Source of the DNA: Rickettsiales endosymbiont of Ecdyonurus torrentis
GTDB lineage: Bacteria; Pseudomonadota; Alphaproteobacteria; WRAU01; Hepatincolaceae
Direction of reading: 5' to 3'
DNA length: 24,000 bases
NCBI GenBank assembly: GCA_964020105.1
Contig: OZ026535.1
Span: forward strand, 461,657 to 485,656
Shown here in pieces: positions 3,825 through 22,573 of this stretch; position 1 is the first letter of the stretch; each line of letters opens with the position of its first letter. The position numbers and the translations under genes were made by a program. Below the pieces are notes generated by a model. It saw only the letters and a list, made by a program, of their open reading frames with translations. It did not search any database and was not told where the DNA came from.

Positions 3825-4193
3825 ATGAAAAAATATAAAGAAAATTTACAAAAAAGGTTAGATGTTTTAGAGTCCTCTGGCGTTATATCTAAACGTTCTA
3901 GTGATGTTGTTATGCACTCATTAGGTCAGCTAATCTCATATGCAAAATTCCCTAATAATCAGGAAGCATTTGATATTTTTTTTACTCATTTAGCTCTATC
4001 TACAGAAAGAGCATTATTAAATAAACAATTAGAAGACTATGATAAGTTAATAGAAGGTGAATTAAGAATGCAGAACGATTATTCAAAGATAAAAAAAATG
4101 GTTGCTTTGATTGAAAATGATGCAAACTTAAAATTCACAGATGCGGAAAAAATTTTTATAATGTTACATTTATGTAGTATAGTATCAAATTAA
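3825..4193 (+). CDS. yhfY: Stand-alone PRD-domain protein (YhfY-like), 122 aa
   Basis: ATG-initiated ORF and first gene of the cluster. Helical sequence with a PRD-like conserved His/Arg segment (FFTHLALSTERAL). The size and its position next to DUF2620/YhfT/Php match E. coli YhfY. No RNA- or DNA-binding domain is attached. Confidence 0.7.
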   Translation: MKKYKENLQKRLDVLESSGVISKRSSDVVMHSLGQLISYAKFPNNQEAFDIFFTHLALSTERALLNKQLEDYDKLIEGELRMQNDYSKIKKMVALIENDANLKFTDAEKIFIMLHLCSIVSN

Positions 4194-4208
4194 GTAAGGG
4201 ATTTGGGT

Positions 4209-4571
4209 ATGAAAAAAATAGTCGTAGCTGGGCAACTAGATAAAGAAAAAATAGCTGATTTAATTAGAAAATTAGGAGGAGACAAAGTTCATATAGAAGT
4301 AAAAGGAGATATGGAGGCTGCTTTTGATATGAAAAATAAACTATTTGATTATTATATAGGAGCTTGCAATACAGGAGGTGGAGGTGCAATTGCTATGCCG
4401 ATTGCCATTTTAGGATCTTCACTCTGTGTTACTTTATCCATGCCTGGTAGGTTGTGTAGTAAGGAAGAAATAGAAAACTTTGTTGCCAAAGGTAAGGTGG
4501 TTTATGGCTTTACTGCCCAGCATGCCGAGCAAGTATTGCCTATGCTGATGCCTTTGTTATTGAAAGATTAA
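4209..4571 (+). CDS. yhfU: DUF2620-family protein (YhfU-like), 120 aa
   Basis: The ORF track starts at TTG 4203. ATG 4209 is preferred because AAGGGA (4196-4201) sits 7 nt upstream. Contains a Cys/Gly-rich loop, YYIGACNTGGGGAIAMP. The size and position directly upstream of the YhfT-like permease match E. coli yhfU. Confidence 0.72.
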   Translation: MKKIVVAGQLDKEKIADLIRKLGGDKVHIEVKGDMEAAFDMKNKLFDYYIGACNTGGGGAIAMPIAILGSSLCVTLSMPGRLCSKEEIENFVAKGKVVYGFTAQHAEQVLPMLMPLLLKD

Positions 4572-4599
4572 TAAGTGTGCTACCAGAGGAGCTTTATTT

Positions 4600-5919
4600 A
4601 TGCCAATATTAGCAGATGGACAAATATTTAGATTTTTAATTATTGGACTTTTAGGTGCTTTAGCCTCTTTGCTTAGTAAGCGCGGAGTTGCCGTCTTTCA
4701 TGATGGATTGCGTCCTGTAATGCCAGAGTATATCGAGGGGAAAATAGATAAAAAATCTTTAATGGCAACCTCTTTTGCTTTATCTTTTGGCTTAGTTATT
4801 GGCTTTGGTATACCAGCTTCAATTGCAGCATCTACTGTTGTTTCCATATTGCTTATTCATTCTGTTCTCCTGGGAACTGACATCATAGGAACTTGGAGCC
4901 CTAGTACTTCTTTAGGTGATTTTATTGCAGCCTTAGTAGGATTCATATATGCAGTTCTATTATTACTTGGTCTTGGCTTTATTGTTGAGTTGTTTGCCAA
5001 AATGCCTGTTAACTTTTTACCTCATCTAGGAGAAATAGGTACACCGATAATTACAGCTTTTGCCGTATTCCCTGCACTGGTTATTGCTTATCAGTACGGC
5101 TTTAAAAAGGGAATTTTAGTGCTTGCTATTGCTCTTTTAGCAAAGCAGTTGATTATTAAGTTAGACTTTATTTCTATATTTGATATGAAAATTAAACTTA
5201 ATGCCGACGGTATAGCTTTGCTCGTATCAATGTTAATAATGTTATTTTTGGCAGCAACAGATAAAACAAAAGTAGTGAATAACAATTCTGGAGTAGCACT
5301 AATTAGTTTGTTCTCTGATCGTGTAAAAAGAATTAAAAAAAATTTATTGATCCTAGCTATAACCGGTGGGGTTATAGCTACCGCTACCTCCATGGGTATG
5401 CTCGCTGGTGATTTAATATCATTAAATCTCCTCAAAGACGGTATTAGAACAGAAGCAGCTTTAACTGCTTTTGCTATTGCCCTTGGATTTATACCTCTTG
5501 TTGGCACAACTGCCATTACAACAGGAGTATATAGTCCCGCTGGTATGAAATTTGTTTTTGTTATTGGTATCTTAGTTGCTAATCCATTATTGGCTTTTTT
5601 ATTTGGAGCTCTTGTTATTGTTCTTGAAGTGCTTTTCTTAGAGCGAATTGCTATCTTGGTAGAAAAATCGCCTGGTATCAAAGAATGTAGTAATCATATT
5701 AGAACCGCAACCACTAAAGTGTTAGAATTGGCTTTGCTAGTAGGTGGGATGATAGCTGCTGAAAAAATTGCACCAAAAATTGGTTTCTTTTTTGTAATTG
5801 GTCTATATTTAATTAATAAAACCTCCAGAAAACCCTTTGTGGAAATGGCTTTAGGACCCATTGCTGCAATTCTTTTAGGAATTATTATGAATATTTTATA
5901 TGTCTTAGGAATTATATAG
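4600..5919 (+). CDS. yhfT: Polytopic inner-membrane protein, YhfT-like putative transporter, 439 aa
   Basis: GAGGAG SD (4586-4591) lies 8 nt before the ATG. The product is highly hydrophobic with about 10-12 predicted TM segments. The length (439 aa vs about 434 in E. coli YhfT) and the neighbourhood match. The 5091-5681(-) ORF inside it is a shadow frame. Confidence 0.8.
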   Translation: MPILADGQIFRFLIIGLLGALASLLSKRGVAVFHDGLRPVMPEYIEGKIDKKSLMATSFALSFGLVIGFGIPASIAASTVVSILLIHSVLLGTDIIGTWSPSTSLGDFIAALVGFIYAVLLLLGLGFIVELFAKMPVNFLPHLGEIGTPIITAFAVFPALVIAYQYGFKKGILVLAIALLAKQLIIKLDFISIFDMKIKLNADGIALLVSMLIMLFLAATDKTKVVNNNSGVALISLFSDRVKRIKKNLLILAITGGVIATATSMGMLAGDLISLNLLKDGIRTEAALTAFAIALGFIPLVGTTAITTGVYSPAGMKFVFVIGILVANPLLAFLFGALVIVLEVLFLERIAILVEKSPGIKECSNHIRTATTKVLELALLVGGMIAAEKIAPKIGFFFVIGLYLINKTSRKPFVEMALGPIAAILLGIIMNILYVLGII

Positions 5920-5929
5920 TAGGATAGAG

Positions 5930-6832
5930 ATGAAATTTAAAAATGCTATCTATGCCCATGAACACATTGCTCTAGATCTTTCTACACCTGAGCGCCCTGA
6001 ACGTGTTTTAAATAAATTAGAATCCACCAGGGATGAATTCATACTATTAAAACAACTTGGGGTCTCTAGAATTGTTGATTTAACTGCTAAGGGCATGGGA
6101 CGAAATATAGCTTCAATCGTTAATTTAAGAGAGCTTACACAGCTTGATATTACAGTGGCAACTGGATATTATAAGAAACCTTATTTGCCTCAGGAGGTTT
6201 ATGATAATGACGTCAATGCATTGGCCAAATTAATGTTGAATGAAATATATGAAGGAATTGAATATCATCCAGATAAGAAAAAAGTTAAAGCAACTGTGAT
6301 AGGCGAAATTGGTACCTCTTTGAATGAAATTACACAGGAAGAGTATAAAATTTTCTCCGCAAGTGCAATAGTTCAAAAAAATTCCTTGTTGCCTTTAGTA
6401 ACTCATACAACTTTAGCAACTATGGCACTTGAGCAGATAGATCTTCTTAGAAGCTTTGAGGTTGATTTAACTAAGGTTGTAATTAGTCATATGGATCTAA
6501 GTAATTCTCTAGAATACATAATAAAAGTATTAGATAGTGGAGTTAATATAGGTTTTGATACTATAGGTAAGCTAAATTATAAATCGGATGACACTAGGGC
6601 TAAGTACTTACTTGAGCTTTGTCAAAGGGGATATGTAAGCCAGATTGTTATGTCAGTTGATATAACTGCTAATGCTCAACTTAAAGATATGCATGGTATT
6701 GGATATGCATATTTAATAGAGCAGTTTATTCCAAAACTTTCAGCTAGTGGTGTAAAAGAGATGGATATTAGAACAATCACGGAAGACAATCCCAATAGGA
6801 TCTTTGCTAGGAGTTTTAAAGATGATAAGTAG
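5930..6832 (+). CDS. php: Phosphotriesterase-homology protein (Php; amidohydrolase-superfamily binuclear metal hydrolase), 300 aa
   Basis: Aligns by eye along its whole length with E. coli Php: AHEHIALDL, ATGYY, VIGEIGTS, VTHTT, LEQIDLL, ISHMDL, FDTIGK, MSVDIT, FIPKLSASG. All six expected metal ligands are present (H10, H12, E126, H159, H187, D244 in this ORF). Confidence 0.9.
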   Translation: MKFKNAIYAHEHIALDLSTPERPERVLNKLESTRDEFILLKQLGVSRIVDLTAKGMGRNIASIVNLRELTQLDITVATGYYKKPYLPQEVYDNDVNALAKLMLNEIYEGIEYHPDKKKVKATVIGEIGTSLNEITQEEYKIFSASAIVQKNSLLPLVTHTTLATMALEQIDLLRSFEVDLTKVVISHMDLSNSLEYIIKVLDSGVNIGFDTIGKLNYKSDDTRAKYLLELCQRGYVSQIVMSVDITANAQLKDMHGIGYAYLIEQFIPKLSASGVKEMDIRTITEDNPNRIFARSFKDDK

Positions 6833-7931
6833 TATTATGCAAAGCTATCCTTTGCCTTATTTAAGCTTAGAGGAAGCAATTGAAAAACAGTTTAAATTGG
6901 TAGAGGTTATAACTAGTCATTTTAGGGATAATGAATTTCTAAGTTATGGTGATGTTGGTCTAAATCAGTTAAGTAATGCGCCTTTATATACAAGAAAAGT
7001 AGAAGCAGTATTGGCAGAATATTTTTCTGCTGAAAGCTGTGTGCTGGTTAGGGGGGCTGGGAGTGGTGCACTTAGATATGCTCTTATTAGTGTGTTGCAG
7101 CCTAAGGAAAATATATTGTTGCATAATGCAGAAATATATCCTACAACAGCTATATCTATAAATTCCATGGGGCTTGAGAAAATATTTGCAGATTTTAATT
7201 CAGCAAAAGATATGGAAAACATTTTAGCAGCAGGTAATATCAAAACCATGCTATTGCAGATTAGTCGACAAAAATTAAGTGATAGTTATGACGCTACTAA
7301 GGTTATAGATATCGCTAAGACACATGGGATTAATAACATTATCACAGATGACAATTATACAGTAATGAAGGTTAAAAAGATAGGTGTAGAGATAGGAGCA
7401 GATTTATCAACATTTTCACTGTTTAAGCTTTTAGGATCCCAAGGAATCGGATGTATTCTTGGCAAAAAATATCTGATAGATGAAATTAAAAATATGAATT
7501 ATTCTGGAGGATCTGCAGTACAAGGGTTTGAGGCAATGGAATGTTTAAGGGGATTAGTTTATACTCCAGTTACTTTTGCCCTGCAGGCAAAAGTACTAGA
7601 TGCTGTTTTAAATAGACTTAATAATAATGAAATACAAGATGTAGAAAGCGCAGTAATTGCTAACACACAATCAAGGGTTATTATTGTTAAATTGAAAAAA
7701 GCAATTGCAAAACAAGTTATAAATAATGCTGTAAAATTCGGTGCGGTTAATTATCCTGTAGGGGCGGAATCTAAATTTGAAATTACTCCTATGTTTTATC
7801 GTTGTTCTTCAACTTTACTAAAAGAAAATCCTCAATATGCAGACTATTTAGTTAGGATTAATCCTATGCGAGCAGGAGTAGACACTACAATAAATATTCT
7901 AAAACGTAGTATAGCAATTAGTACTAAATAG
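6822..7931 (+). CDS. yhfS: Fold-type-I PLP-dependent enzyme, YhfS-like, 369 aa
   Basis: The ORF track starts at TTG 6804. ATG 6822 is preferred because TAGGAG (6808-6813) sits 8 nt upstream. It overlaps the php stop by 11 nt. Contains a PLP-lysine-type segment, STFSLFKLLGSQGIGCILGKK. The length (369 vs about 361 aa) and context match E. coli YhfS. Confidence 0.78.
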   Translation: MISSIMQSYPLPYLSLEEAIEKQFKLVEVITSHFRDNEFLSYGDVGLNQLSNAPLYTRKVEAVLAEYFSAESCVLVRGAGSGALRYALISVLQPKENILLHNAEIYPTTAISINSMGLEKIFADFNSAKDMENILAAGNIKTMLLQISRQKLSDSYDATKVIDIAKTHGINNIITDDNYTVMKVKKIGVEIGADLSTFSLFKLLGSQGIGCILGKKYLIDEIKNMNYSGGSAVQGFEAMECLRGLVYTPVTFALQAKVLDAVLNRLNNNEIQDVESAVIANTQSRVIIVKLKKAIAKQVINNAVKFGAVNYPVGAESKFEITPMFYRCSSTLLKENPQYADYLVRINPMRAGVDTTINILKRSIAISTK

Positions 7932-7938
7932 GAATTAT

Positions 7939-9108
7939 ATGTTTTTAAATGCTTTGGTTAAGAAAAATCCTAAATTTATATCCACAGTAAGTAATTTGTA
8001 TCAACAAAATAAACTAGAGCCTGATACATATGTTATAGATCTCGATACTCTTCTTTATAATGCAGAGTTAATTCTTAAAGAAGCTAGAGATCAAGCAATG
8101 GATATTTTATTTATAACCAAACAATTAGGATTCAATCCGTTAATTGCACAAGAGCTAGTTAGATTAGGATATGAAGGAGCTGTTTGTGTGGATTTTAAAG
8201 AAGCTGAAGCTATGATTAAAAATAAAATCCCAATTATTCATAGTGGTCATTTAGTGCAAATACCAAAATGTAAAATAGATAAGTTAGTATTACATAGTAA
8301 ATACATAACAGTATTTTCTTTACATAAAATAAAAGAAATTAACGAAGTTGCGTCCAGGCAGAATAAGATTCAAAACATTTTTCTTAGGATTTGTGGAGAA
8401 AATGATACCTTTTATCCAGGCCAAATTGGTGGGTTTAAATTAGAAGAACTAGCAGTACTAATTTCTCAAGTAAGGAATCTACAAAATATTAAGATAGCTG
8501 GGATCACTTCATTTCCTTGTTTTTTATATAATAGCGCTAGCAAAGCCATAGAAGCTACTAATAATGTTAAAACATTGTTAGTAGCTAAAAAACTTTTAAG
8601 TGATCTTGGTATTATTATTGAAACTTTAAATATGCCATCAAGTATTTGTAAAAATAGCATAAAGATAGCAAAAAAGAGTGGAGCCACTCAAGTTGAGGTG
8701 GGGCATGGTGTTAGTGGTACTACTCCATTACACGCGGAAGACTTTAGTCAGCCTGAAATACCTGCTATTTTGTATCTAAGTGAGCTATCCCACCAATATG
8801 GTGGAGTGAGCTACTTTTATGGAGGAGGATATTATAGGAGAGGGTATCTTAAAAATGCTATTTTGAGTAGTGATATTAGCAAGGGGATATTTAATGATTT
8901 TAAGGAAGTAGAGCAACTTGATAGTACTGTTATTGACTATTATTTTGGCTTAAAGTCATTAGAAAATTTATCACAAGGGGTGATAACAAGTTTTCGCACA
9001 CAAATGTTTATAACTAGAAGCAAAATAGCAATTATAAGTGGAGCTAATGATAATGATCCTAAAATACAGGGGATATATGATATTTTTGGTAAAAAAATAG
9101 ATAGTTAG
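7939..9108 (+). CDS. yhfX: Alanine-racemase-N-domain-like (fold-type III) PLP enzyme, YhfX-like, 389 aa
   Basis: ATG 7939 is preceded by TAGGA. The N-terminal pattern YVIDLDTLLYNAELI...FITKQLGFNP resembles the alanine racemase / YhfX barrel with a candidate PLP lysine. The length (389 vs about 387 aa) and context match E. coli YhfX. Confidence 0.78.
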   Translation: MFLNALVKKNPKFISTVSNLYQQNKLEPDTYVIDLDTLLYNAELILKEARDQAMDILFITKQLGFNPLIAQELVRLGYEGAVCVDFKEAEAMIKNKIPIIHSGHLVQIPKCKIDKLVLHSKYITVFSLHKIKEINEVASRQNKIQNIFLRICGENDTFYPGQIGGFKLEELAVLISQVRNLQNIKIAGITSFPCFLYNSASKAIEATNNVKTLLVAKKLLSDLGIIIETLNMPSSICKNSIKIAKKSGATQVEVGHGVSGTTPLHAEDFSQPEIPAILYLSELSHQYGGVSYFYGGGYYRRGYLKNAILSSDISKGIFNDFKEVEQLDSTVIDYYFGLKSLENLSQGVITSFRTQMFITRSKIAIISGANDNDPKIQGIYDIFGKKIDS

Positions 9109-9119
9109 GAGAGATTATT

Positions 9120-10358
9120 TTGTCTAAGAGAGTTCTTCTTTTTATATTGGATGGCTTTGGTATTGGGGTTATGGATGATTATTTAAAATTCAACCCAAAG
9201 GATAGAGGAGCTAATACTGCCAAGAGTGTTTTATTGATAAATCCAGATATTAAGATACCAAATTTGTTAAAATTAGGTTTAATTAATGCCATAGGTGAAA
9301 ACATTGGTGAGTTTGATGTTTCAAGTAATGCTGTTTTTGGTAAGATGGCTTTAAAGCATTTTGGAGCAGATAGTTTTTTTGGCCATCAAGAAATAATGGG
9401 AACAGAGCCTAAAGAGCCATTGGAGAGACCATTTTTTGAAGTTGCTGAGAGTGTATATAATTTTTTAATTACAAAATCTATTAAAGTGAGAAAAGTATAC
9501 GCAAAAGATTTATCTTTAAGTAATGAAGAAAAGTTACTGTTTTTAGTAATTAATGAATGTGCAGTATTTGCAGATAATTTAGAAAGCATGCCAGGAAGCG
9601 TATATAATTTAACATGCTCACTGGATATAATTAGTTTTCAGAAGATACAAGAGTTGGCTAAATTATTAAGGAATGAATTAACTATTCCAAGAATTATTGC
9701 TTTTGGAGGCAGTGGAGTAACTTTGCAAAATATCTTGGAAGCAAGTGAAGTAAAGGGTAATTATTTTGGGATCAATGCTCCTAGAAGTGGTGTTTATAAA
9801 TGCAACTATCAGGTTGTGCATATGGGTTATGGAATAGATGCAACCAAACAGGTGCCATATTATTTAGAGAAAATCCATATTCCTACAATTTTTCTTGGCA
9901 AAGTTGCAGATATAGTTGTTAATAATTATGGTAAAAATATTCCTGGGGTTGCCACAGAGGTTATTTTAAAAAATACTCTGCAAGAATTTAAAAGCATAAA
10001 TAAGGGGTTTGTTTGTGCTAACATTCAAGAAACAGATTTAGCAGGACATGCTGAAGATGCAAAATTATTTGGTGAAAAAATACAAATTTTTGATGAATAT
10101 TTAACTTTCTTTTTGCAAGAAATGGACAAAGATGATTTATTAATGATTATAGCTGACCATGGTAATGATCCATGTATTAAACATTCTTTACATACTAGGG
10201 AGTACGTGCCTTTGCTGATTGCTTCTATTGAGAATCGCAAAAGTATTAAGGATCTGGGTATAAGGCATAGTATGGCAGATGTTGGTAAAACTATTTTGGA
10301 TTATTTTGCTGCAGAAAATAAGTTATTTGGTAAGTCATTTTTAGAAGATATTAAATAA
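9120..10358 (+). CDS. yhfW: Phosphopentomutase-like metalloenzyme (alkaline-phosphatase superfamily), YhfW-like, 412 aa
   Basis: TTG start at 9120 is supported by AGGAG (9107-9111) 8 nt upstream. DeoB-type metal-site motifs are present: LFILDGFGIG, ETDLAGHAEDA, IIADHGNDPC. The length (412 vs about 408 aa) and context match E. coli YhfW. Confidence 0.85.
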   Translation: MSKRVLLFILDGFGIGVMDDYLKFNPKDRGANTAKSVLLINPDIKIPNLLKLGLINAIGENIGEFDVSSNAVFGKMALKHFGADSFFGHQEIMGTEPKEPLERPFFEVAESVYNFLITKSIKVRKVYAKDLSLSNEEKLLFLVINECAVFADNLESMPGSVYNLTCSLDIISFQKIQELAKLLRNELTIPRIIAFGGSGVTLQNILEASEVKGNYFGINAPRSGVYKCNYQVVHMGYGIDATKQVPYYLEKIHIPTIFLGKVADIVVNNYGKNIPGVATEVILKNTLQEFKSINKGFVCANIQETDLAGHAEDAKLFGEKIQIFDEYLTFFLQEMDKDDLLMIIADHGNDPCIKHSLHTREYVPLLIASIENRKSIKDLGIRHSMADVGKTILDYFAAENKLFGKSFLEDIK

Positions 10359-12000: not shown

Positions 12001-12933
12001 ATGAAATTGGCTGTTCAGATCTTTGGTCACTTAAGAACTTATGGAGTGTGTCATAGGTCATTATATAAGAATATATTATCTAGATATTCTTGTGATATTT
12101 TTATACATACATGGTCAGATGTTAATCATTATAATCAGTACTGGAATAAAGAAGTTGTAAAACAGATTAACTCACATAATATAGTGGATGATATAAAAAA
12201 AATTTATGCACCAAAAAAACTTCTGATAGAAGATCAGAAGCAAGAAAAAATTGGTAAAGCAAAAAAATTAATCAATAAAAATATAAATATCGATTCTATA
12301 AAGTCGATGTATCATAGTATGACTTCTGTCAATAATCTACGTCTATCATACGAGGAAGAAACAAGTACCAAATATGATTTTGTCATTATGCTTCGACCAG
12401 ATCTTTATTTTAGAAAGCCTTTTATAATAGAGGATTATTTCAAAGACATTGATCCACATATAATAGAGGAAACTGTATTTACAGCGGGACTTCCATTAGG
12501 TTCGTTATACTCCTCATTTAAATCAATAGAAGCTGCAGATGTATTTTTTTTTGCTAGACCTTATCTTATAAATAAGATTTATTCCGTAGAGAATATTGCA
12601 GTATCTTTAGCGGAAGAGATAGTTGTAACAACACCTAGCATTGAATACTTGCTAGCAAAATCCATTAAGAATGCTGGATATACTATGATTCTTATAAATT
12701 ACATTTATAAAAAAGATTTTAGTATTATAAGACCTTTTAATATTAAGGATCTCAGATTTTCAAACATTAAGAAAATTCGAAGAGGACTATTTAGTGTGAG
12801 GATCAATAAAAATAGAATCCATATAGTAATTTTAGGGTTGTGTGTGCGTAGATTTTTAAGAATAACCTTTCATATTGGAGAAGGATATTGTATAAATATA
12901 TGTTTAGGAAATGGATACATAAATGTTATGTAA
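12001..12933 (+). CDS. Hypothetical protein, 310 aa, first gene of the glycan-modification operon (function not recognised)
   Basis: ATG-initiated ORF in the same orientation as the five downstream genes and closely spaced with them. I cannot confidently name any motif. The assignment to glycan biosynthesis rests on context only. Confidence 0.6.
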   Translation: MKLAVQIFGHLRTYGVCHRSLYKNILSRYSCDIFIHTWSDVNHYNQYWNKEVVKQINSHNIVDDIKKIYAPKKLLIEDQKQEKIGKAKKLINKNINIDSIKSMYHSMTSVNNLRLSYEEETSTKYDFVIMLRPDLYFRKPFIIEDYFKDIDPHIIEETVFTAGLPLGSLYSSFKSIEAADVFFFARPYLINKIYSVENIAVSLAEEIVVTTPSIEYLLAKSIKNAGYTMILINYIYKKDFSIIRPFNIKDLRFSNIKKIRRGLFSVRINKNRIHIVILGLCVRRFLRITFHIGEGYCINICLGNGYINVM

Positions 12934-12949
12934 TTTAAAGAGGAATAAA

Positions 12950-13696
12950 ATGCTAAATATAGTTTTGCCAATGGCTGGAAGAGGAAGTAGGTTTGCTGAT
13001 GCTGGTTACAAAACTCCCAAACCGCTTATTGAAATTAATAATGTTCCTATGATAAAAGTTGTAGTAGACAATCTTACACCAATTAGGGAGCATAGATTTA
13101 TTTTTGTTTGTCAAAAAGAGCACGTTGAAAAGTATGATTTGCTTCCTAAATTGAAGTCATATGCTAAGAATGTTGAAATTATTACAATAGATAGAATCAC
13201 AGAAGGTCAGGTATGCACAGCTCTGCTTGCTAAAAGATTCTTTGATAATGATGAGCCTCTTATGAATGCAAATTCTGATCAATATATTGATTTTGATATT
13301 AATGAGTATCTTGATGCTATGGACGCTAGGAGTCTTGATGGTATGATTATGACTATGAAATCACAAGATTCAAAGTGGTCATATGCTAAAATCAATAATG
13401 AGGGGTTGGTTGTTGAAACAGCAGAAAAAAAGGTAATATCAGATGACGCTGCTGTGGGAATTTTTAATTTTGCTAAAGGTAAATATTTGGTACGTTCAGC
13501 AGAACAGATGATAAAAGATAATATTAGAGTCAATGGTGAATTTTATACTTGTCCATGCTATAATTATCTGATAAAAGAGGGGAAAAAAATAGGTATATAT
13601 AATATTGGTGAGGAGTATAACGGTATGTATGGGCTTGGAATACCTGAAGATCTTAATTTTTTTATCAAAAGTAAAATATCCCAAAGGATTAAATAG
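12950..13696 (+). CDS. Sugar-phosphate nucleotidyltransferase-like protein (GT-A fold), 248 aa
   Basis: The ORF track starts at 12923. ATG 12950 is preferred because AAGAGGA (12938-12944) lies upstream and this start avoids overlap with the previous gene. The N-terminal signature LPMAGRGSRFADAGYKTPKPLI is the G-x-G-[ST]-R plus Lys NTP-binding loop of nucleotidyltransferases. Confidence 0.8.
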   Translation: MLNIVLPMAGRGSRFADAGYKTPKPLIEINNVPMIKVVVDNLTPIREHRFIFVCQKEHVEKYDLLPKLKSYAKNVEIITIDRITEGQVCTALLAKRFFDNDEPLMNANSDQYIDFDINEYLDAMDARSLDGMIMTMKSQDSKWSYAKINNEGLVVETAEKKVISDDAAVGIFNFAKGKYLVRSAEQMIKDNIRVNGEFYTCPCYNYLIKEGKKIGIYNIGEEYNGMYGLGIPEDLNFFIKSKISQRIK

Positions 13697-13700
13697 GATC

Positions 13701-14330
13701 ATGCTTATTTTGTCGCATAGAGGGTATTGGAAAGATGACAAGGAAAAAAATCAAAAAATAGCTTTTCAGCGTAGTTTTGATATGGGGTTTGGTACAGAGA
13801 CAGATGTGCGGGATAGTATGGGGAAAATTGTTATTGCACATGATATGCCGATGGGAGGTGAGATAACACTTGAAAATTTGTTAGATATAATGGCAGGGCG
13901 CAATTTACCACTTGCACTTAATATTAAGGCTGATGGGCTATGTGAAATTGTTAGGGATATTTTAGGTAAATATGGTCATCATAACTATTTTTGTTTTGAT
14001 ATGTCTATTCCTGATATGATAATATACATGAGGAAAAGTGTTAAGTTTTTTACAGGATTAAGTGATATATTATCAAAGCCTGTACTTTTAGAGGAAGCAG
14101 ATGGTGTGTGGCTTGATAGTTTTAATAGTGATTGGTATCAGCACCACTTGATTGATGAAATTATAAATGAAAATAAGACTGTATGTGTGGTATCTTCTGA
14201 TTTACATAAAAGGTCTAATAAAGAGCAATGGGGTATTATAAAAAAATCCCATAATATAAATAGTGATAAGCTGATATTATGTACTGATTATCCAGAGGAA
14301 GCTAGGAGATATTTCAATGAGAAAAATTAA
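13701..14330 (+). CDS. Glycerophosphodiester-phosphodiesterase (GDPD)-like protein, 209 aa
   Basis: ATG 13701 follows the upstream stop by 4 nt, with AGGA upstream. The 13605 start would overlap the previous gene by 92 nt. The N-terminus LSHRGYW...NQKIAFQRSFDMGFGTETDVRD fits the GDPD pattern H-R-G...N...AF...E-x-D. Confidence 0.68.
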   Translation: MLILSHRGYWKDDKEKNQKIAFQRSFDMGFGTETDVRDSMGKIVIAHDMPMGGEITLENLLDIMAGRNLPLALNIKADGLCEIVRDILGKYGHHNYFCFDMSIPDMIIYMRKSVKFFTGLSDILSKPVLLEEADGVWLDSFNSDWYQHHLIDEIINENKTVCVVSSDLHKRSNKEQWGIIKKSHNINSDKLILCTDYPEEARRYFNEKN

Positions 14331-14955
14331 AGCAGTTTTATTTGATATGGATGGGGTGTTGATAGAGGCAAAGGATTGGCATTATGAGGCTTTAAATAAG
14401 TCATTAGGGCTTTTTGGTTATAAAATTGAGCGTTATGAACATCTTACTAGTTATGATGGTTTGCCTACTAAGACAAAGCTAAAAAAACTCTCTAAAGAAA
14501 AGGGGCTTCCTGAGGCGTTACATGATTTTATAAATGAAATGAAACAACAATATACAATTTATATGATACATCAATTATGTCGACCTTGTTTTAATCATGA
14601 GTACTTATTGTCTCGTTTAAAGCACGAAGGGTATAAATTAGCTGTTGGTTCTAATTCCATACGTAAGACTGTAGAAATGATGATGGATTATGCTAAACTA
14701 ACACAGTATTTTGATTGTATGATTTCTAATCAAGATGTTAAAAACTCTAAGCCAGATCCAGAAATATATTGTAGAGCAATGAATTTGTTAAATGTAAAAC
14801 CAAATGAGTGTTTGATAGTAGAGGATAATGAGAATGGGATTAAAGCAGCTAATGCTTCTGGGGGGCATGTCTTAATAGTTAGAGATGTTAATGAAGTTAC
14901 TTATGAAGCAGTTAAAAATAAGATTTATGAAATTGAAAATGAGGTAAAGCTATGA
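14317..14955 (+). CDS. HAD-superfamily hydrolase (subfamily IA-like phosphatase / phosphomutase), 212 aa
   Basis: HAD motif I VLFDMDGVLIE, motif II VGSNS, motif III/IV K-P...VEDNENGIKAA. TAGGAG (14303-14308) lies 8 nt upstream. It overlaps the previous gene by 14 nt. Confidence 0.85.
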   Translation: MRKIKAVLFDMDGVLIEAKDWHYEALNKSLGLFGYKIERYEHLTSYDGLPTKTKLKKLSKEKGLPEALHDFINEMKQQYTIYMIHQLCRPCFNHEYLLSRLKHEGYKLAVGSNSIRKTVEMMMDYAKLTQYFDCMISNQDVKNSKPDPEIYCRAMNLLNVKPNECLIVEDNENGIKAANASGGHVLIVRDVNEVTYEAVKNKIYEIENEVKL

Positions 14956-15683
14956 AAATAGTATTCTTGATGGGAGGACATAGTATTTCTCAGAGCAATG
15001 AAGATTATCCATTATGTTTTGCAGAAATTAATGGAGAGCTTGTTTTAGAGAAACATATACAGTATTGTTTAGAATTAAAACCATCAGAGTTGATATTCTG
15101 TGTTAGAGCTGAAGATATAAAGAGATATTGTATTGATGAGGTTATTAAGCGGTTGGATTCAGAAGCAAATATAGTCACTATTAATACACAAACTAGGGGT
15201 GCTGTTTGTACAGCTTTGCTTGGGATTGAGTATATTAATAATGATGAAGAGTTGATAGTTATGGCTGTTGATGATTTCATTGAGGGTGGTGGTGTTAGTA
15301 TAATAAAAGAGTTTAGAGAGAAAAATCACGCTGCTGGTATTGTGTATTTCAGCTCTGTTCATCCTAGATATTCTTTTGCTAAGATTAATAATGGTGAGGT
15401 TGTTGAAGTTGCTGAGAAGCATCCTATAAGTAAAAATGCTTTAGTGAGTTTTTATTATTTTCAAAAAGGACTAGATTTTGTTAGGTGTGCTATGGAGGTT
15501 ATTCGTAAGGATAGCCCTGTGAAAGATGCTTTTTATATAAGTCAGACATTGAATGAAATGATTTTACAACAGAAAACAGTTGGTGCTTATAAGATTGATA
15601 ATAGTAAGTTTCATCCGTTAAAAACAAAAATTCAATTAGCACAGTATATAACATATTTAAAAGAGATGAGAGATAGTAAATGA
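14952..15683 (+). CDS. Paralogue of the 12950-13696 nucleotidyltransferase-like protein with a degenerate NTP-binding loop, 243 aa
   Basis: Clear paralogy: RGAVCTALLGIEYINNDEELIVMAVDDFI vs EGQVCTALLAKRFFDNDEPLMNANSDQYI, and YSFAKINNGEVVEVAEKHPIS vs WSYAKINNEGLVVETAEKKVIS. The N-terminal loop is FLMGGHSISQSNEDYPLCF instead of LPMAGRGSRFADAGYKTPKPLI. ATGA start/stop overlap with the upstream gene. Confidence 0.72.
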   Translation: MKIVFLMGGHSISQSNEDYPLCFAEINGELVLEKHIQYCLELKPSELIFCVRAEDIKRYCIDEVIKRLDSEANIVTINTQTRGAVCTALLGIEYINNDEELIVMAVDDFIEGGGVSIIKEFREKNHAAGIVYFSSVHPRYSFAKINNGEVVEVAEKHPISKNALVSFYYFQKGLDFVRCAMEVIRKDSPVKDAFYISQTLNEMILQQKTVGAYKIDNSKFHPLKTKIQLAQYITYLKEMRDSK

Positions 15684-16003
15684 GGTTAGCAAAACTGGAT
15701 TCTATGACAAAAGGTTGGTTTATAGGTAATTTTTTACCAAGTTTATCTAAAACAGATGCTTGTGAGGTTGCTGTTAAGCATTATAAAAAGGGGGATACCG
15801 AGGCAAAACATTATCATAAGATTGCTGTTGAGTACACTGTGATTGTTTTTGGAGTGGTTCTTATGAATGGAGTAGAATATGGGGCAGGAGATATAATTAT
15901 TATGGAACCCAATGAAGCAACAGATTTTAAGGTATTATCGGATACTGCGGTAAATGTGGTAGTTAAATTGCCTTCAGTTAAAAATGATAAATATTTAGTT
16001 TAA
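15680..16003 (+). CDS. Small cupin-domain protein, 107 aa
   Basis: Exact fit to cupin motif 1, G(X)5HXH(X)4E(X)6G, in KGDTEAKHYHKIAVEYTVIVFG. ATGA overlap with the upstream gene indicates translational coupling. Confidence 0.75.
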   Translation: MRLAKLDSMTKGWFIGNFLPSLSKTDACEVAVKHYKKGDTEAKHYHKIAVEYTVIVFGVVLMNGVEYGAGDIIIMEPNEATDFKVLSDTAVNVVVKLPSVKNDKYLV

Positions 16004-16306
16004 AAATCTAATTTCTGATTATAGGCTTTCAATAGCAAGCTTTATAAGAAGATGTACTATATTAGTATACAATTCAAGTAGAGAGAATATTGTAATTATT
16101 GCTCCCAATTATGTTTTCCTTGATTTTTTCCGGCAGTTGTTTTCGAGCTAAGTGTTAATTTTTATATTATTTAGGGTTGTATAGAAAAATAATGGTTTTG
16201 TGGTAAAAAAAGTTTGAATAGGGAGATTAGTAAAAAAGGCGTATAGTTACAATTAGAAAGAATATATTGCTCAGTTGTCACTCAAATCATCATACAAGGA
16301 AAAAAC

Positions 16307-19099
16307 ATGATAAAGTGGATAGTAGTGGTTATTGCTTGTACATGTACTTTTGTTTTGAAAGCAGAAGATAAATATGGTAGTAGAATAAATTATAAAATTG
16401 AAACTCAAAGTTTTGTTATTTTATATAATAATAAATTAGATATGTTAGCTAATCATCTTGCTAGGAACATAGAAAATTGGGGAGCAGAGGTATTTAATTT
16501 AAGTGGAGCTACTCCTAGAGCAAAAATATATGTTTATTTAGTAAATCATAATGACGTTATAAATGCATATAGCTATTCTAATGTTGTAATATTACATATT
16601 AATTCTGAGTTAATGCATGATTTTCATGTTAATTGGGTTGAGACTACTTTTAAACATGAATTAACTCATAATGTGAATATTCTTTTTGATAAACCACACT
16701 GGTGGAATTATTCTATTGGCATCTTAGAGAGGATGATTTATCCTATTTGGGTCGAAGAGGGATTGGCAACTTATGCTGAAACTGAGTTATTTAATCCGCA
16801 ATACAAAAATGGCAGAGGAGTTAATGAAGATTTTTTGTCTAAAATTAGATACAATTATAATAAAGGTATTTCAAATTATTTTTATTATGAAGATGCTAGT
16901 CCTTATGAAGTTGGTTGGGCATTTTTTGACTTTTATAGTAGTACGTATGGCAAAGATAAATTAAGACTTGCTGGACAAAAATATTTAGCAAATCCATTAA
17001 TTAAAATCATATATTCTCCAATTACAATATATGCAGATACAGCAAACATAAGTAGTATAGATTTATATAGAGACTATGATGAATATTTTGAGAAAAAATA
17101 TAAAATTGCTGAAAATTCTTACATACAAGGAGAAATTTTAATTAAAAATGGTTTTGATAAGCAAAACCATATAGATAATATTCTTGATATAAAAGAAGAT
17201 AATCTGTATTACTATGGTTATAGAAAGAGCGTGCTTAATGGTAGTAGTGATAGAGGTATTTTTAGTTATAATTTAAGCAAAAAGACAGTTAAATCTTACG
17301 TATATCTTAATTCTGGGGCTGACAATGTTGTAAAACAAGATAATGATGTATATTATAGTAATATTGACATTAGGAATTATGATGGAGAGCAGTATTCACA
17401 AGCCTATCATTACAATGGAGATAAATTATTATTTAAAACTAAGAAATTAGATTTACAAAGAGTCCATAAATTAATTAGTACTAAAGAGGGTATTTTTTAT
17501 GTTATGAATAATCAGGATAAGCAGGCACTTGTAAAGCATGATGGGGAGATTGTTGTTATTCCATTTTCTGCAAATTTTATTTTTAATAAGCTAGTTTATG
17601 ATAAAAAAAGCAATAGTATTATTTTCGACGCTGGGAGAATATATGATCTATCTGTTAGTGTATATGAGTATAATTTAGATACAACTATTCTTCGTGTCCT
17701 TGTGAAAGGTAGAGAGCCACATGTAGAGAAAGATAAGATATATTTTTCTAATCATACTGAAAATTCAAGATACAACATATATAGTTTTAATAGATTAACC
17801 AAAGAAGTATTACAATTAACCAATACTCCATATGGAGCCTTTAATCCATATTATCATGAGGGAGTTTTGTATTATATAAGCTACCATGAATCAGGCAAAA
17901 CTATATTTCGCTTATCAGAGGATAAGTTTGTAAATAGCAAAACTAATATATTTGCTGGGTTAGAAATAACTTATGATTTAATGCTTAATAAAAAAGAATT
18001 AAATACATCGATTGCCGAAATGGGTAACACTAATGTCATTGCTGATTTACAAATAGTGGATAATAATATGAATTTATCTATAAATCCAATTAATAATTCA
18101 ACTGTAAATAGCAGTGGAAAAGTTGATAGAAATAGTAATAATATTAATGGAAGTCCTTATAAAAAAACATCTATTTCTTTTTTTAATTATAGACTAAATA
18201 GGATTGATCTTATCGGTACTATGGGAGTATCTGTGGCTTCTTTAGATAATACGCATACAATAGATGTTGCTAGAGAATCATTTGATTACGGAATTGTTGA
18301 GGACAACTTGTCAGCCTCTGATTTAAAATCAGGATCAGTTAGGTTTATTTATAATCCCAATCAAGTTGCAGATATTCCAATGGGTGTATTTTCTGTTGTT
18401 GCGTATAAATCTTTATCAACTAGACATGGTGCACTGATTGCTAATTTTACTCCGATATTATATAGTGGCTATGGCAATGTGCCGAGTATAGTGGGTGATT
18501 TTAAATTAAATCATAATGCTGATTACAAAATTGGTGGAACTTTATTATTTAGTAATATTTATAAGTTAAATATTACAGGAGGATATAGCACTCAGTATAA
18601 AAGAAGAGATAATTATTATCATGCGGGTTTTTCTTTGTATGAAATTTTAAGTTTTACTTATAATCAAGGAGATAAAACTTATTTTAATATTAATGTTGAT
18701 TCCTCAGGTATAAGTAATCTTAATTTATGGAAAGTAACAGGAATGGATTATGTTTTACAAACAACTATCAAAAGAAGTATTCCTTTTAATATTTATTACG
18801 GAACTAGAGACGGCAGAATAGGAATTAATGAAATCATAATAAGACCATCATTTGTACATTTATATGCAGGATATAATAAAAATCCACAACCGTCTTTATA
18901 CAATACTTATCATACTTCTTATACTAACTTAGATGTATTTTTCAATGGAGTGTTTCAGTATAACACAGGCTTCAGTCTCGGGGTTGGAGTAAGTTATCGT
19001 TATAATTATAATCTCAATACTGAATATTCTTCTTTAACTGAAGGGTTTGAGAAAAAAGAAGATGTTGAAACTTATATGATTTTGAAGCTGAATTTCTAA
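16307..19099 (+). CDS. Secreted / outer-membrane multidomain protein, 930 aa: signal peptide, HExxH zinc-metalloprotease (peptidase-MA-like) domain, beta-propeller-like repeat region, C-terminal beta-barrel
   Basis: AAGGA SD before the ATG. N-terminal signal-like MIKWIVVVIACTCTFVLKA/EDK. HELTH at aa 117-121 (nt 16655-16669), followed by PIWVEEGLATYAE (E150/E151), a gluzincin-type third ligand. The middle region (aa ~290-540) has recurring short beta-strand repeats resembling TolB/PD40-type propellers. The last ~300 aa show alternating-hydrophobic strands and end ...YMILKLNF, with the terminal Phe typical of OMP barrels. Confidence 0.8.
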   Translation: MIKWIVVVIACTCTFVLKAEDKYGSRINYKIETQSFVILYNNKLDMLANHLARNIENWGAEVFNLSGATPRAKIYVYLVNHNDVINAYSYSNVVILHINSELMHDFHVNWVETTFKHELTHNVNILFDKPHWWNYSIGILERMIYPIWVEEGLATYAETELFNPQYKNGRGVNEDFLSKIRYNYNKGISNYFYYEDASPYEVGWAFFDFYSSTYGKDKLRLAGQKYLANPLIKIIYSPITIYADTANISSIDLYRDYDEYFEKKYKIAENSYIQGEILIKNGFDKQNHIDNILDIKEDNLYYYGYRKSVLNGSSDRGIFSYNLSKKTVKSYVYLNSGADNVVKQDNDVYYSNIDIRNYDGEQYSQAYHYNGDKLLFKTKKLDLQRVHKLISTKEGIFYVMNNQDKQALVKHDGEIVVIPFSANFIFNKLVYDKKSNSIIFDAGRIYDLSVSVYEYNLDTTILRVLVKGREPHVEKDKIYFSNHTENSRYNIYSFNRLTKEVLQLTNTPYGAFNPYYHEGVLYYISYHESGKTIFRLSEDKFVNSKTNIFAGLEITYDLMLNKKELNTSIAEMGNTNVIADLQIVDNNMNLSINPINNSTVNSSGKVDRNSNNINGSPYKKTSISFFNYRLNRIDLIGTMGVSVASLDNTHTIDVARESFDYGIVEDNLSASDLKSGSVRFIYNPNQVADIPMGVFSVVAYKSLSTRHGALIANFTPILYSGYGNVPSIVGDFKLNHNADYKIGGTLLFSNIYKLNITGGYSTQYKRRDNYYHAGFSLYEILSFTYNQGDKTYFNINVDSSGISNLNLWKVTGMDYVLQTTIKRSIPFNIYYGTRDGRIGINEIIIRPSFVHLYAGYNKNPQPSLYNTYHTSYTNLDVFFNGVFQYNTGFSLGVGVSYRYNYNLNTEYSSLTEGFEKKEDVETYMILKLNF

Positions 19100-19730
19100 G
19101 GAAAAAATATTACGTTAATTGAGAGAAACTGTATGGAGTTTTGACATCATAGAGAGTTGATTTTGTTAGATTTTTTCCTTAAAGTATTATATTTCTATCA
19201 AAATAAAATAACAAAAAGTTACAAAGCCTTAAAATTTATTAACTTAGCGCAAATTATGGCAAATAAAAGCCCTTTGTTAGGTAAGCTCTAGATTATAATA
19301 AAGTAGTTTAGTTTGGGTAGGAAAAAATCAAAGTAGATGTTTGAGATGATACATTGCAACAAAATTTGTGAATAAGTAGAGATTTTAACAGATTAATTAC
19401 TATTAGAAAAGTTAGCTTTAGGTTGATGATAATTTAATTCAAAAAATTTTGTAGAAAACAACGACATTAATTTTGATCTTATTAGGTATGCAAAGAATAA
19501 TTACAATATTTCTCCCTAAATATTCGTAAAATATAAAGAAATTGTAGTAGTTTTCTGCAAATTAAGTAGATTATAATAATCAAAATATAAGTATGTCAAT
19601 TTGCTATTTAACACTAATAAAGCACTTAGGATTTATTTAAATAGGAAATTGCATAAGGTGTAACTTTTACTTTAAAACAAACTGGGTTCTTTGCTTAAGA
19701 ATGGCTGCTCATATATACTAAAATGAGTTG

Positions 19731-20562: not shown

Positions 20563-22194
20563 CTATTTCTCCTTTACATATTCTGCAACAGCTTGTACAT
20601 AAGATAAAAACAACGGATGGGGTTCAAATATCTTTGATCTTAGTTCTGGATGAAATTGTACGCCAATAAACCAACGATGATTTTTCAATTCTATAGTTTC
20701 AGGTAGTATATTATCAGGAGACATACCAGAAAAAATAAAACCCTTTTCTTCAAGTTTGCTTCTATATTTGGTATTTACCTCATAACGATGCCTATGTCTT
20801 TCATATATCATATCAGCATTATAGATGCTTGATACCTTTGACCCTTTCATTGGAATAAATGGATATAATCCAAGTCGTAAAGTGCCACCCTTATAAGAAT
20901 CTAAACTCCTTTTTTCCAAAACCCCTTCCTTTAGCCACTCAGTAATTAGACCAATTACTGCAGTTCCAGAACTTGCAAATTCACTAGAAGTAGCATCTTT
21001 TATACCTAGAAGATTTCTACTTGCTTCAATCACAGCCATCTGCATCCCAAAGCATATTCCTAAAAAAGGTATATTATTTATCCTTGCATATTCAACCGCC
21101 TTTATTTTCCCCTCAATCCCTCGACTCCCAAATCCAGGTGCCACAATAATACCGTCAATATCAGAAAATAATTTACCACAATTAGGATCTTTTTCTTCAA
21201 ACAATTCCGAGTTAATCCAACTAATATTAACTTTAATACCACTATGAATTCCAGCATGATACAATGCTTCTGTAATAGATTTATATGCATCTTTTAAGAT
21301 TGTATATTTACCAACAAGTGCTATTTTAATATTTTTTGTATAGGAATCTATTTTACTCTCTATCGTTTTCCACTGCGAAATATCAATATTGTTACCCTTT
21401 ATGCCAAAATGATACAAAACTCTCTCATCCAAGCCTTCTTTATGATAGTATAAGGGTACCTTGTATATATTATCAGCATTGTAACCAGCTATAACGTCTT
21501 TTGTATCAACATTGCAAAAAAGAGCAATCTTTTTTTTATCAAGCTCACTAATCTCTTGTGAGGAACGACATAATATAACGTCAGGCTTGATGCCTAGCGA
21601 CTGCACTTCTCTAACAGAATGCTGAGTGGGTTTAGTTTTAATTTCACCAGCTGACTCTAAATAAGGAACAAGTGTAACATGGACAAACACAACCTTGCTT
21701 TTCCCTTTTTCATTATAAAATTGACGAACAGCCTCTAAAAATGGTGTCGCTTCTATATCACCCACTGTCCCACCAATTTCACAGATCAAAAAATCCTCAT
21801 CAGTAATATCTTTATCGATAAAACTTTTTATTTCATTGGTAACGTGCGGTATAACCTGAATGGTCTCCCCTAGGAAATCACCCTTTCTTTCTTTTTCAAG
21901 AACATTGAAATATATGCGACCAGCACTGATACTATCATTTTTGTTACAAGAATTACTTGTGAATCTTTCATAATGACCAAGATCAAGATCCGTCTCTGCA
22001 CCATCATCAGTTACAAAAACTTCCCCATGTTGAGTAGGACTCATAGTCCCAGGATCAATATTAAGATAAGGATCCATTTTTTTATTTCTTACTTTATAGC
22101 CACGTGCCTTCAGCAATGCACCCAAAGATGCAGATACTATTCCCTTACCAAGGGAAGATGTAACACCGCCAGTAACAAAGATATATCTAACCAT
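20563..22194 (-). CDS. pyrG: CTP synthase
   Basis: YIFVTGGVTSSLGKGI, DPYLNIDPGTMSPTQHGEVFVTDDGAETDLDLGHYERF, and the glutamine amidotransferase segment GICFGMQ...HRHRYEVN. Its stop lies 1 nt from the kdsA start. Confidence 0.97.
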   Translation of the reverse strand: MVRYIFVTGGVTSSLGKGIVSASLGALLKARGYKVRNKKMDPYLNIDPGTMSPTQHGEVFVTDDGAETDLDLGHYERFTSNSCNKNDSISAGRIYFNVLEKERKGDFLGETIQVIPHVTNEIKSFIDKDITDEDFLICEIGGTVGDIEATPFLEAVRQFYNEKGKSKVVFVHVTLVPYLESAGEIKTKPTQHSVREVQSLGIKPDVILCRSSQEISELDKKKIALFCNVDTKDVIAGYNADNIYKVPLYYHKEGLDERVLYHFGIKGNNIDISQWKTIESKIDSYTKNIKIALVGKYTILKDAYKSITEALYHAGIHSGIKVNISWINSELFEEKDPNCGKLFSDIDGIIVAPGFGSRGIEGKIKAVEYARINNIPFLGICFGMQMAVIEASRNLLGIKDATSSEFASSGTAVIGLITEWLKEGVLEKRSLDSYKGGTLRLGLYPFIPMKGSKVSSIYNADMIYERHRHRYEVNTKYRSKLEEKGFIFSGMSPDNILPETIELKNHRWFIGVQFHPELRSKIFEPHPLFLSYVQAVAEYVKEK

Positions 22195-22231: not shown

Positions 22232-22573
22232 TTACTTATTACCTAAAGGAACTTTAGGTTTATCATCAATCTTTGTTTCCACTGGAGATTCTTTGCTTTT
22301 TTGAGCTTCTTGTATTTTATTTAATAAATCATTATCTTCCTTATTACTGTTAATGTGTATGGCTCCAATTACTACACTATTAATAAATAATGCAAAGCCA
22401 AAAATAAGAGTTATTTTTGTTAGTGAACTAGTAACAGAAGTTCTAGCAGAAAAAAAAGAGTTATAAGTGTTACTACTTATTAAAGAAGTTCCGCCTTCAC
22501 TCTTTTGAAACATAACTAATAAAATTAATAACAAGGAAATAACAAACTGAGATACATAAAAAAATGTTAACAT
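22232..22573 (-). CDS. secG: Preprotein translocase subunit SecG (with a charged C-terminal extension)
   Basis: Two-TM topology with the central loop MFQKSEGGTS...FFSA. Conserved position between tpiA and pyrG. Confidence 0.85.
   Translation of the reverse strand: MLTFFYVSQFVISLLLILLVMFQKSEGGTSLISSNTYNSFFSARTSVTSSLTKITLIFGFALFINSVVIGAIHINSNKEDNDLLNKIQEAQKSKESPVETKIDDKPKVPLGNK

Follow-up and report, generated by a model that had tools for sequence, protein, structure and literature searches.

We analysed a stretch of 24,000 nucleotides (nt) of the Rickettsiales endosymbiont of Ecdyonurus torrentis (contig OZ026535.1, positions 461,657 to 485,656; hereafter the window), in which an open reading frame (ORF) on the forward strand encodes a 930-residue protein with four consecutive parts: a signal-peptide-like N-terminus, a gluzincin-like metallopeptidase domain, a TolB/PD40-like β-propeller and a C-terminal outer-membrane β-barrel of diverged Omp85 type. 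An earlier account of the same DNA, made from the letters alone (the preliminary description), had proposed this order of domains and regarded it as lying outside the described Omp85 families. We find that the protein belongs to an Omp85 subfamily that is already catalogued but unstudied, within which it forms a strongly diverged sub-lineage, and that it is not a new kind of protein. The features of the locus are as follows, each with the evidence for it.

16297..16300, + strand: Shine-Dalgarno-like AGGA, 6 nt before the ATG (direct sequence reading)
16307..19099, + strand: whole ORF, ATG start, 930 codons plus stop (ORF listing; full-length homologues at 26–34% identity in other genomes)
16307..16366, + strand: signal-peptide-like N-terminus, residues 1–20, MIKWIVVVIACTCTFVLKAE (most hydrophobic 19-residue window in the protein, a heuristic)
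16388..17110, + strand: gluzincin-like metallopeptidase domain (clan MA, Peptidase_MA_2-type), residues 28–268 (sub-threshold Pfam match, AlphaFold, domain profile)
16655..16669, + strand: HELTH, predicted zinc-binding and catalytic motif with H117, E118 and H121 (conservation)
16748..16780, + strand: WVEEGLATYAE, residues 148–158, with the predicted third zinc ligand E151 in WxxEG (E151 and G152 invariant)
16904..16906, + strand: Y200, candidate transition-state-stabilising tyrosine (invariant in the N-domain alignment; aligns to the 'sY.KG' tyrosine of M1 enzymes)
17159..17941, + strand: TolB/PD40-like β-propeller of about six blades, residues 285–545 (AlphaFold, Foldseek, family profile)
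17984..18211, + strand: Asn-rich low-complexity linker, residues 560–635 (21% Asn; mostly low model confidence; gaps in the closest relatives)
18212..19096, + strand: outer-membrane β-barrel of diverged Omp85 type, residues 636–930 (AlphaFold, family profile, colinear motifs)
19067..19096, + strand: β-signal-like last strand, ...YMILKLNF (direct reading)

The reading frame is real: it starts with an ATG behind a Shine-Dalgarno-like sequence and has full-length relatives in other genomes. The non-coding flanks given in the preliminary description, 303 bp upstream (16004–16306) and 631 bp downstream (19100–19730), were recovered as well, and both are free of ORFs of at least 45 residues, ORF remnants, tRNAs and RNA genes or Rfam matches. 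With a guanine-plus-cytosine (GC) content of 27.7%, the gene is the most AT-rich among the window's large genes. It had been called the most AT-rich gene of all, which was incorrect, as secG (22232–22573; 26.3%) and an ORF at 3825–4193 (26.6%) lie lower; non-coding sequence at about 2700–3800 also has a GC content of only 24–25%.

At the N-terminus of the protein, K3 is followed by 14 hydrophobic residues, and a comparable hydrophobic N-terminus occurs in 70 of 75 full-length relatives. By this heuristic and its recurrence across the family, the signal-peptide-like character noted earlier holds. A lipoprotein signal (VIAC, with Cys11) was considered and rejected because the cysteine lies too near the N-terminus and relatives do not conserve it.

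The metallopeptidase domain is best defined by its conserved residues. HExxH occurs once in the protein (H117–H121) and recurs at the same position in 71 of the 75 full-length relatives; its two histidines and its glutamate show no variation in A6, an N-domain alignment of 25 sequences, and reach at least 90% conservation in alignments A1–A3. Also invariant in A6 are E151, located 30 residues past H121, as well as G152, G169, Y200 with G203 alongside it, and G215. The gluzincin-type site that had been proposed from the letters (H117-E-L-T-H121 followed by WVEEGLATYAE) was thus confirmed at the level of its motifs, which are conserved family-wide. Sub-threshold Pfam matches to Peptidase_MA_2, DUF2268 and DUF1570 fall on residues 87–219. 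The protein reaches Peptidase_MA_2 at E 0.0035 (15.5–17.6 bits, below the curated threshold of 32.4 bits), and two relatives, P0006 (33.3 bits) and P0012 (34.3 bits), pass that threshold.

A profile of the N-domain yielded weak matches in the PDB (E 0.017–0.5), of which the best were nearly all HExxH zinc metalloproteases, chiefly clan MA gluzincins. They comprise the M1 enzymes 3cia (a cold-active aminopeptidase), ERAP2 and puromycin-sensitive aminopeptidase, and the M9 collagenases ColG and ColH. In these alignments HExxH falls on HExxH, WxxEG on the M1 WLNEG element (WLNEGF in 3cia and ERAP2) and Y200 on the 'sY.KG' tyrosine; the M1 enzymes with such alignable residues include tricorn-interacting factor F3. 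In M1 enzymes, the WLNEG glutamate is a zinc ligand, the 'sY.KG' tyrosine is catalytic and the GXMEN exopeptidase motif lies ~36 residues before HExxH. Unlike these enzymes, the protein lacks the M1 N- and C-terminal domains and GXMEN: upstream of HExxH, the family consensus is DxxDxxNGxA without a conserved Glu, and the protein itself has NHNDVINAYS. By analogy, H117, H121 and E151 are predicted to be zinc ligands, E118 the base and Y200 a helper residue.

Homology of the propeller to TolB is evident at the family level. A profile of 73 family members matches the TolB structure with E 2e-35 over profile positions ~388–526, and PD40 is detected in 25 of 50 relatives; the protein itself has no Pfam match in this region. 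A Foldseek search of the whole model against the PDB returned matches to the propeller only, namely tricorn, CJ1041C and TolB (7mx5; root-mean-square deviation 4.0 Å). Together with the strands modelled by AlphaFold (see below), these matches uphold the TolB/PD40-like assignment of the preliminary description. The protein shares with TolB the six-bladed PD40 propeller. TolB, however, is a soluble periplasmic protein and carries an N-terminal α/β TolA-binding domain, whereas the propeller described here sits between a peptidase and a barrel, and the matches cover TolB residues ~175–330, that is, the propeller only. Where databases give the relatives a name, it is either 'hypothetical protein' or 'Tol biopolymer transport system component', and the latter label covers the propeller alone.

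Between propeller and barrel lies the Asn-rich linker, at the position where other Omp85 proteins have POTRA domains. Judging from the model, it is probably disordered. It is largely missing in the closest relatives and, by alignment, is in part an insertion specific to this protein.

As for the propeller, the relationship of the barrel to known structures emerges at the family level. The 73-member profile matches BamA (8xnb) with E 2.4e-10 over positions 656–932 and TamA with E 3e-6 over positions 690–931. Wider members of the family display the Omp85 pattern LGG..LRGY..ExRFPL..ERG..PPIGI..FxDxGxAW, ending in ..G..F, and the protein is colinear with these barrel motifs (KRSIPF-NIYYGTRDGRIGI...), with INVD at the LRGY position. 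By analogy with BamA, the conserved IPF-NIYYGTRDGRIGI element would form a periplasmic turn placed as in that protein. A C-terminal aromatic residue (F, W or Y) is found in 51 of 75 full-length relatives, and the claim of a C-terminal barrel with a terminal aromatic residue (...MILKLNF) stands on the family profile and the AlphaFold model. The protein thus shares with BamA and TamA the C-terminal β-signal and, through its wider family, the ExRxPL and FxDxG-type motifs; unlike them, it has neither POTRA domains nor the RG(Y/F) motif of loop 6, and an enzyme and a propeller take the place of the POTRA arm. The loop-6 motif is functionally important in BamA, TamA and FhaC. From these alignments we regard the C-terminal domain as a barrel descended from Omp85 in which the loop-6 hallmark has been lost.

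AlphaFold was run on the 73-sequence family alignment, and regional values of the predicted local distance difference test (pLDDT) are averages of ten-residue block means. With this alignment, the model reached a mean pLDDT of 76.4 and a predicted template-modelling score (pTM) of 0.83; single-sequence input gave a pLDDT of only 30. The N-domain (residues 28–265) is modelled as helices and a sheet with a pLDDT of ~87, and the propeller (residues 288–537) as 23 strands in about six blades with a pLDDT of ~89. The linker (residues ~560–635) is disordered and Asn-rich, mostly below 50. From residue 638 on, the first part of the barrel, comprising about the first eleven strands, has a pLDDT of ~55, and the last part, with the later strands (residues 810–900), ~85. 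Sixteen long strands were counted over residues 638–929 from the AlphaFold secondary structure, which would correspond to a putative 16-stranded barrel.

To place the protein among its relatives, an exhaustive HMMER search was run over 1.84 billion cluster representatives. It returned 74 relatives at E ≤ 1e-3, 15 of them at 1e-10, mostly 800–1050 residues long and with the same layout. A word-indexed search of 5.8 billion proteins with the single protein returned the query alone, the exact protein did not turn up on public contigs, and phmmer recovered nothing from the PDB beyond a chance match (E 0.48). Pfam detected PD40 (25), DPPIV_N (13), Peptidase_MA_2 (10) and Omp85 (8) among 50 relatives. 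The closest relative (34% identity), annotated as hypothetical, comes from 'Rickettsiales bacterium LUAb2', followed by an orthologue in the 'Rickettsiales endosymbiont of Leucozona glaucia' and by proteins of Fusobacteriota (Haliovirga abyssi, Fusobacteriaceae metagenome-assembled genomes (MAGs) and Psychrilyobacter). Further relatives come from gammaproteobacterial and other MAGs, and a genome scan with an 8-sequence alignment found five loci. A 341-residue protein (P0007) considered as a stand-alone barrel was rejected, being a fragment on a 1.3-kb contig. By sequence comparison, the protein belongs to a diverged, AT-rich sub-clade composed of Hepatincolaceae-like arthropod symbionts and Fusobacteriota. 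In line with this, the PyrG encoded in the window (20563–22194) shares 66% identity with its counterpart in a 'Candidatus Hepatincolaceae' symbiont, which, with the 74% noted below, makes the source probably a Hepatincolaceae-like alphaproteobacterium. The contig that carries the window measures 1.38 Mb. Members of the Hepatincolaceae-like group are extracellular and occupy the microvilli of the gut in arthropods and other ecdysozoans (PMC11724238). The Hepatincolaceae genomics paper makes no mention of a protease–propeller–barrel protein.

The protein is evolving fast. It shares 26–28% identity with its orthologue in the Leucozona endosymbiont (locus L001, 7920–10514; genome 1.465 Mb), compared with 74% for PyrG between the same two genomes. 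Identity to the three closest relatives is 36–40% in the N-domain, 30–31% in the propeller and 17–28% in the barrel. The low identity between orthologues would reflect either very rapid divergence or separate acquisition, with the barrel the fastest-evolving part (down to 17%). One rival reading is that the gene is decaying, or has already lost its function, in a symbiont genome that is reduced and AT-rich, with its domain signatures eroding and no specific task left to the protein: every Pfam signature is sub-threshold in the protein, there is an Asn-rich low-complexity insertion, the GC content is low and the barrel is highly diverged (14–28% identity). Against decay, the 2.8-kb frame is intact and preceded by a Shine-Dalgarno sequence, the catalytic residues and the terminal β-signal are all in place, and the N-domain and propeller are modelled at a pLDDT of 87–89. 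Orthologues are moreover retained in at least three related small-genome symbionts, and retention in genomes of ~1.4 Mb suggests that the protein is useful. We consequently regard decay as very unlikely.

Contrary to the preliminary description, the architecture has been catalogued. In 2014, Heinz and Lithgow distinguished ten bacterial subfamilies within the Omp85/TpsB superfamily, one of them termed 'WD40-like' (PMC4104836). Its members carry PF01103 together with PF07676, which is repeated one to five times, as well as PF00930 and PF10647 (their Table S2), and give Phyre matches to the BamA/TamA barrel, to TolB and, as 'best aminopeptidase hit', to 1z5h, 4kxd, 4fgm and 4ar1 (their Table S3; PMC4104836). 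The order of an M1-aminopeptidase-like region, a TolB-like propeller and an Omp85 barrel, the absence of POTRA domains and the Pfam families PF07676, PF00930 and PF01103 are shared with the relatives found here. The taxa overlap in myxobacteria, Bacteroidota/Ignavibacteria and Gammaproteobacteria, and both sets are functionally uncharacterised. Since the Pfam composition is identical and the taxa overlap, we infer that our family and the WD40-like set (e.g. H1XQ58, D0MEQ5 and A9FGN9) are the same. What distinguishes the sub-clade studied here from the WD40-like set is that it lies under all Pfam thresholds and lacks the loop-6 RG(Y/F); the protein itself in addition has the long Asn-rich linker. 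A 2024 paper sums up the subfamily by its 'divergent WD40 and peptidase domains' (PMC11358297). The architecture accordingly belongs to a described subfamily, albeit one that has not been characterised experimentally, and a literature search on the combination of Omp85, PD40 and metalloprotease, and on PF13485, retrieved nothing relevant.

The best-studied precedent for an enzyme fused to such a barrel is PlpD/FplA, a patatin-like protein formerly assigned to 'type Vd secretion', which likewise carries an N-terminal hydrolytic enzyme and a C-terminal Omp85-type 16-strand barrel in one chain. For PlpD, protease accessibility, crosslinking and lipidomics experiments showed that the enzyme domain stays periplasmic and is not exported, and in every characterised Omp85 protein the N-terminal domains lie in the periplasm (PMC11116518). 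The protein described here differs in having a zinc peptidase and a propeller instead of a patatin phospholipase and in lacking POTRA domains, and its homology to PlpD is confined to the barrel. By analogy it likely works as PlpD does, with its enzyme held at the periplasmic face of the outer membrane. The N-terminal 60 kDa would be periplasmic because an even-stranded barrel has both ends in the periplasm, because of the PlpD precedent and because a folded propeller cannot cross the membrane. The preliminary description had left open whether the protease is exposed at the surface or faces the periplasm, and these analogies favour the latter.

We therefore propose, with a probability of about 0.5, that the protein is an outer-membrane-anchored, periplasm-facing zinc peptidase, gated by its propeller and acting on envelope proteins or peptides. 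A Sec signal peptide would carry it over the inner membrane, and the barrel would be inserted into the outer membrane by the β-barrel assembly machinery (BAM). The zinc metallopeptidase and the six-bladed propeller would remain in the periplasm, suspended below the barrel. The propeller may filter substrates or offer them a docking platform, in the manner of tricorn, prolyl oligopeptidase and DPP-IV; tricorn and the S9 peptidases share the pairing of propeller and protease, although theirs is a serine peptidase and ours a predicted metalloenzyme. The peptidase would cleave unfolded envelope proteins or peptides near the outer membrane and thereby contribute to envelope quality control or turnover. 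Quality control in the periplasm is a possibility that Heinz and Lithgow entertained for another subfamily, the PF00149 'Metallo' Omp85 proteins (PMC4104836). With the loop-6 RG(Y/F) lost in the sub-clade, its barrel would probably be chiefly an anchor and not an active insertase. What the data show in all this is the gene, the order of its domains, the conserved catalytic residues and the homology of propeller and family barrel to TolB and to BamA/TamA, respectively; export, orientation, catalysis, the task of the propeller and the substrates are inferred.

Several observations weigh against this proposal. The first group concerns the barrel, which is the weakest link for the protein itself: neither PF01103 nor BamA nor TamA is matched by it directly, PF01103 being matched by 8 of 50 relatives and BamA and TamA by the family profile. 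A profile of the sub-clade barrels finds nothing in the PDB, and hhalign of sub-clade against wider barrels gives a probability of 16% (E 0.0016). Bridging hidden Markov model matches within a 103-sequence database are modest (wide barrel profile, wideC, to P0006, 4e-5; sub-clade profile, subC, to P0034, 9e-4). About the first eleven barrel strands are, as noted, modelled with low confidence. The loop-6 signature xRG[YFWS], present in 41 of 64 wider members, is absent from the last 330 residues of the protein, of all 11 sub-clade proteins and of P0010–P0014, which are counted in the wider set, and there is no POTRA match in Pfam for the protein or the 50 relatives. More generally, the protein has no match over threshold in Pfam or NCBIfam (the latter giving no match at all), our literature search found no experimental work on the WD40-like Omp85 subfamily, and no conserved partner gene indicates a pathway in seven other loci of family members, whose neighbours are shared neither with the window nor among each other. 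The disordered linker of ~75 residues and the short loop 6 also leave space for threading through the pore or for surface display. Finally, three full-length relatives from Fusobacteriaceae MAGs (P0008, P0009 and P0078; locus L002, 7794–10316) have lost HExxH, with INLSK or NNLAK in its place, and retain propeller and barrel. They represent a probable pseudo-protease lineage inside the family, and their loss of the motif implies a non-catalytic role in at least part of it.

Those three proteins, full length despite the loss of HExxH, are what would be expected if the family were a non-proteolytic factor of outer-membrane biogenesis, in which the propeller docks, the barrel aids assembly and the HExxH domain merely binds. 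Heinz and Lithgow suggested that the WD40-like subfamily, which has no POTRA domains, is a BamA–BamB-like fusion (PMC4104836). The BamA-like barrel motifs kept in the wider family (LGG..LRGY..ExRFPL..FxDxGxAW) are also in line with assembly. On the other hand, the full catalytic set (H, E, H, E, Y) is present in ~95% of full-length members, which is hard to explain without catalysis, the loop-6 motif has been lost in the sub-clade in question and POTRA domains for substrate handling are missing. Overall, we consider a purely non-proteolytic role improbable.

The linker, in turn, bears on whether the protein could be a type V-like self-exporter displayed at the surface, its linker running through a plug-less barrel pore and its protease and propeller acting on host gut proteins or in attachment. 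Besides ~75 Asn-rich, disordered residues between propeller and barrel, a loop 6 cut to ~10 residues without RG(Y/F) would suit this arrangement, as would the fast evolution documented above, which is typical of exposed proteins, and the extracellular, microvillus-attached gut lifestyle of the bacteria likely to carry the protein (PMC11724238). However, the long linker is unique to this protein and not family-wide, and ~540 residues of protease and propeller would have to cross unfolded without an energy source. PlpD, the best-studied enzyme–Omp85 fusion, is not exported, and the characterised N-terminal domains of Omp85 proteins are periplasmic (PMC11116518). Nor does the barrel resemble that of an autotransporter: by our count it has ~16 strands and neither the 12-strand layout with a helical plug of type Va nor the patatin–POTRA–Omp85 layout of type Vd, and no autotransporter or patatin families were detected by Pfam in the protein or the 50 relatives. 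Surface display thus appears unlikely, and a periplasmic zinc peptidase remains our preferred interpretation.

A bolder variant of the periplasmic peptidase, which we offer as a long shot, is a single-chain quality-control degradase of the outer membrane: the seam of the barrel would read the β-signals of stalled or misassembled proteins, the propeller would hold the chain and the peptidase would destroy it. BepA is a soluble periplasmic HExxH protease of family M48 with a TPR domain that is associated with BAM and acts on stalled outer-membrane proteins. The resemblance is a functional analogy only, as there is no sequence relationship and BepA has no fused barrel. If true, such a degradase would do in a single chain the work of BamA, BamB and BepA and might substitute for periplasmic proteases missing from a reduced symbiont genome.

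The surroundings of the gene complete the picture of the locus. Upstream on the same strand lies a sugar-nucleotide/HAD cluster, and downstream on the opposite strand lie kdsA, pyrG, secG and tpiA. With no neighbours common to the family loci, the protease gene stands alone; small ORFs upstream of the gene in loci L008, L009 and L010, considered as a common partner, proved mutually unrelated. Promoter-like sites are not enriched (36, compared with 31 ± 5 in shuffled sequence). A perfect sigma-70 consensus (TTGACA, 18 nt, TATAAT) is located at 19570–19599 on the minus strand, in the 631-bp spacer downstream of kdsA. It is aimed at the 3′ end of the protease gene and hence antisense to it, no notable ORF follows, and it may have arisen by chance in AT-rich DNA.

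The upstream run (12001–16003, + strand), which ends 303 bp before the protease gene, consists of six close-packed or overlapping genes for a DUF7796 protein, a nucleotidyl transferase, a HAD phosphatase and three ORFs without a Pfam match. By content, it looks like a sugar-nucleotide or surface-polysaccharide cluster. Further upstream, positions 3825–10358 (+ strand) hold a complete yhfS–yhfX-like cluster, surprising in a symbiont genome of ~1.4 Mb, with genes for a PRD-domain protein, DUF2620, YhfT, a phosphotriesterase-family protein, a YhfS-like pyridoxal-phosphate enzyme, a YhfX-like racemase fold and a phosphopentomutase-like metalloenzyme. It is preceded by ~1.1 kb (2693–3824) without an ORF of at least 100 residues, a tRNA or an Rfam match and with the window's lowest GC content (24–25%). 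At 44–2692 (+ strand), an 882-residue ORF without a Pfam match has a GC content of 39%, well above the ~31% found elsewhere in the window, and its GC skew is strong. Its body is rich in Gly, Asn and Thr, its tail is acidic and Glu-rich, and its start possibly lies upstream of the window. From its composition, it could be a secreted or surface protein.

The Omp85 superfamily is otherwise known for building the outer membrane (BamA, TamA) and for protein export (TpsB). A protease–propeller version would be the second, independent case after PlpD of an Omp85 scaffold that holds an enzyme at the periplasmic face, and its architecture persists in arthropod-gut symbionts with genomes of ~1.4 Mb. The two lineages within the family have also lost different parts: the lineage of the Ecdyonurus endosymbiont has kept the catalytic residues and lost the loop-6 motif, whereas in a sister lineage, in Fusobacteriaceae, it is the catalytic motif that was lost. 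These contrasting losses amount to natural 'mutants' for telling which part of the protein does what.

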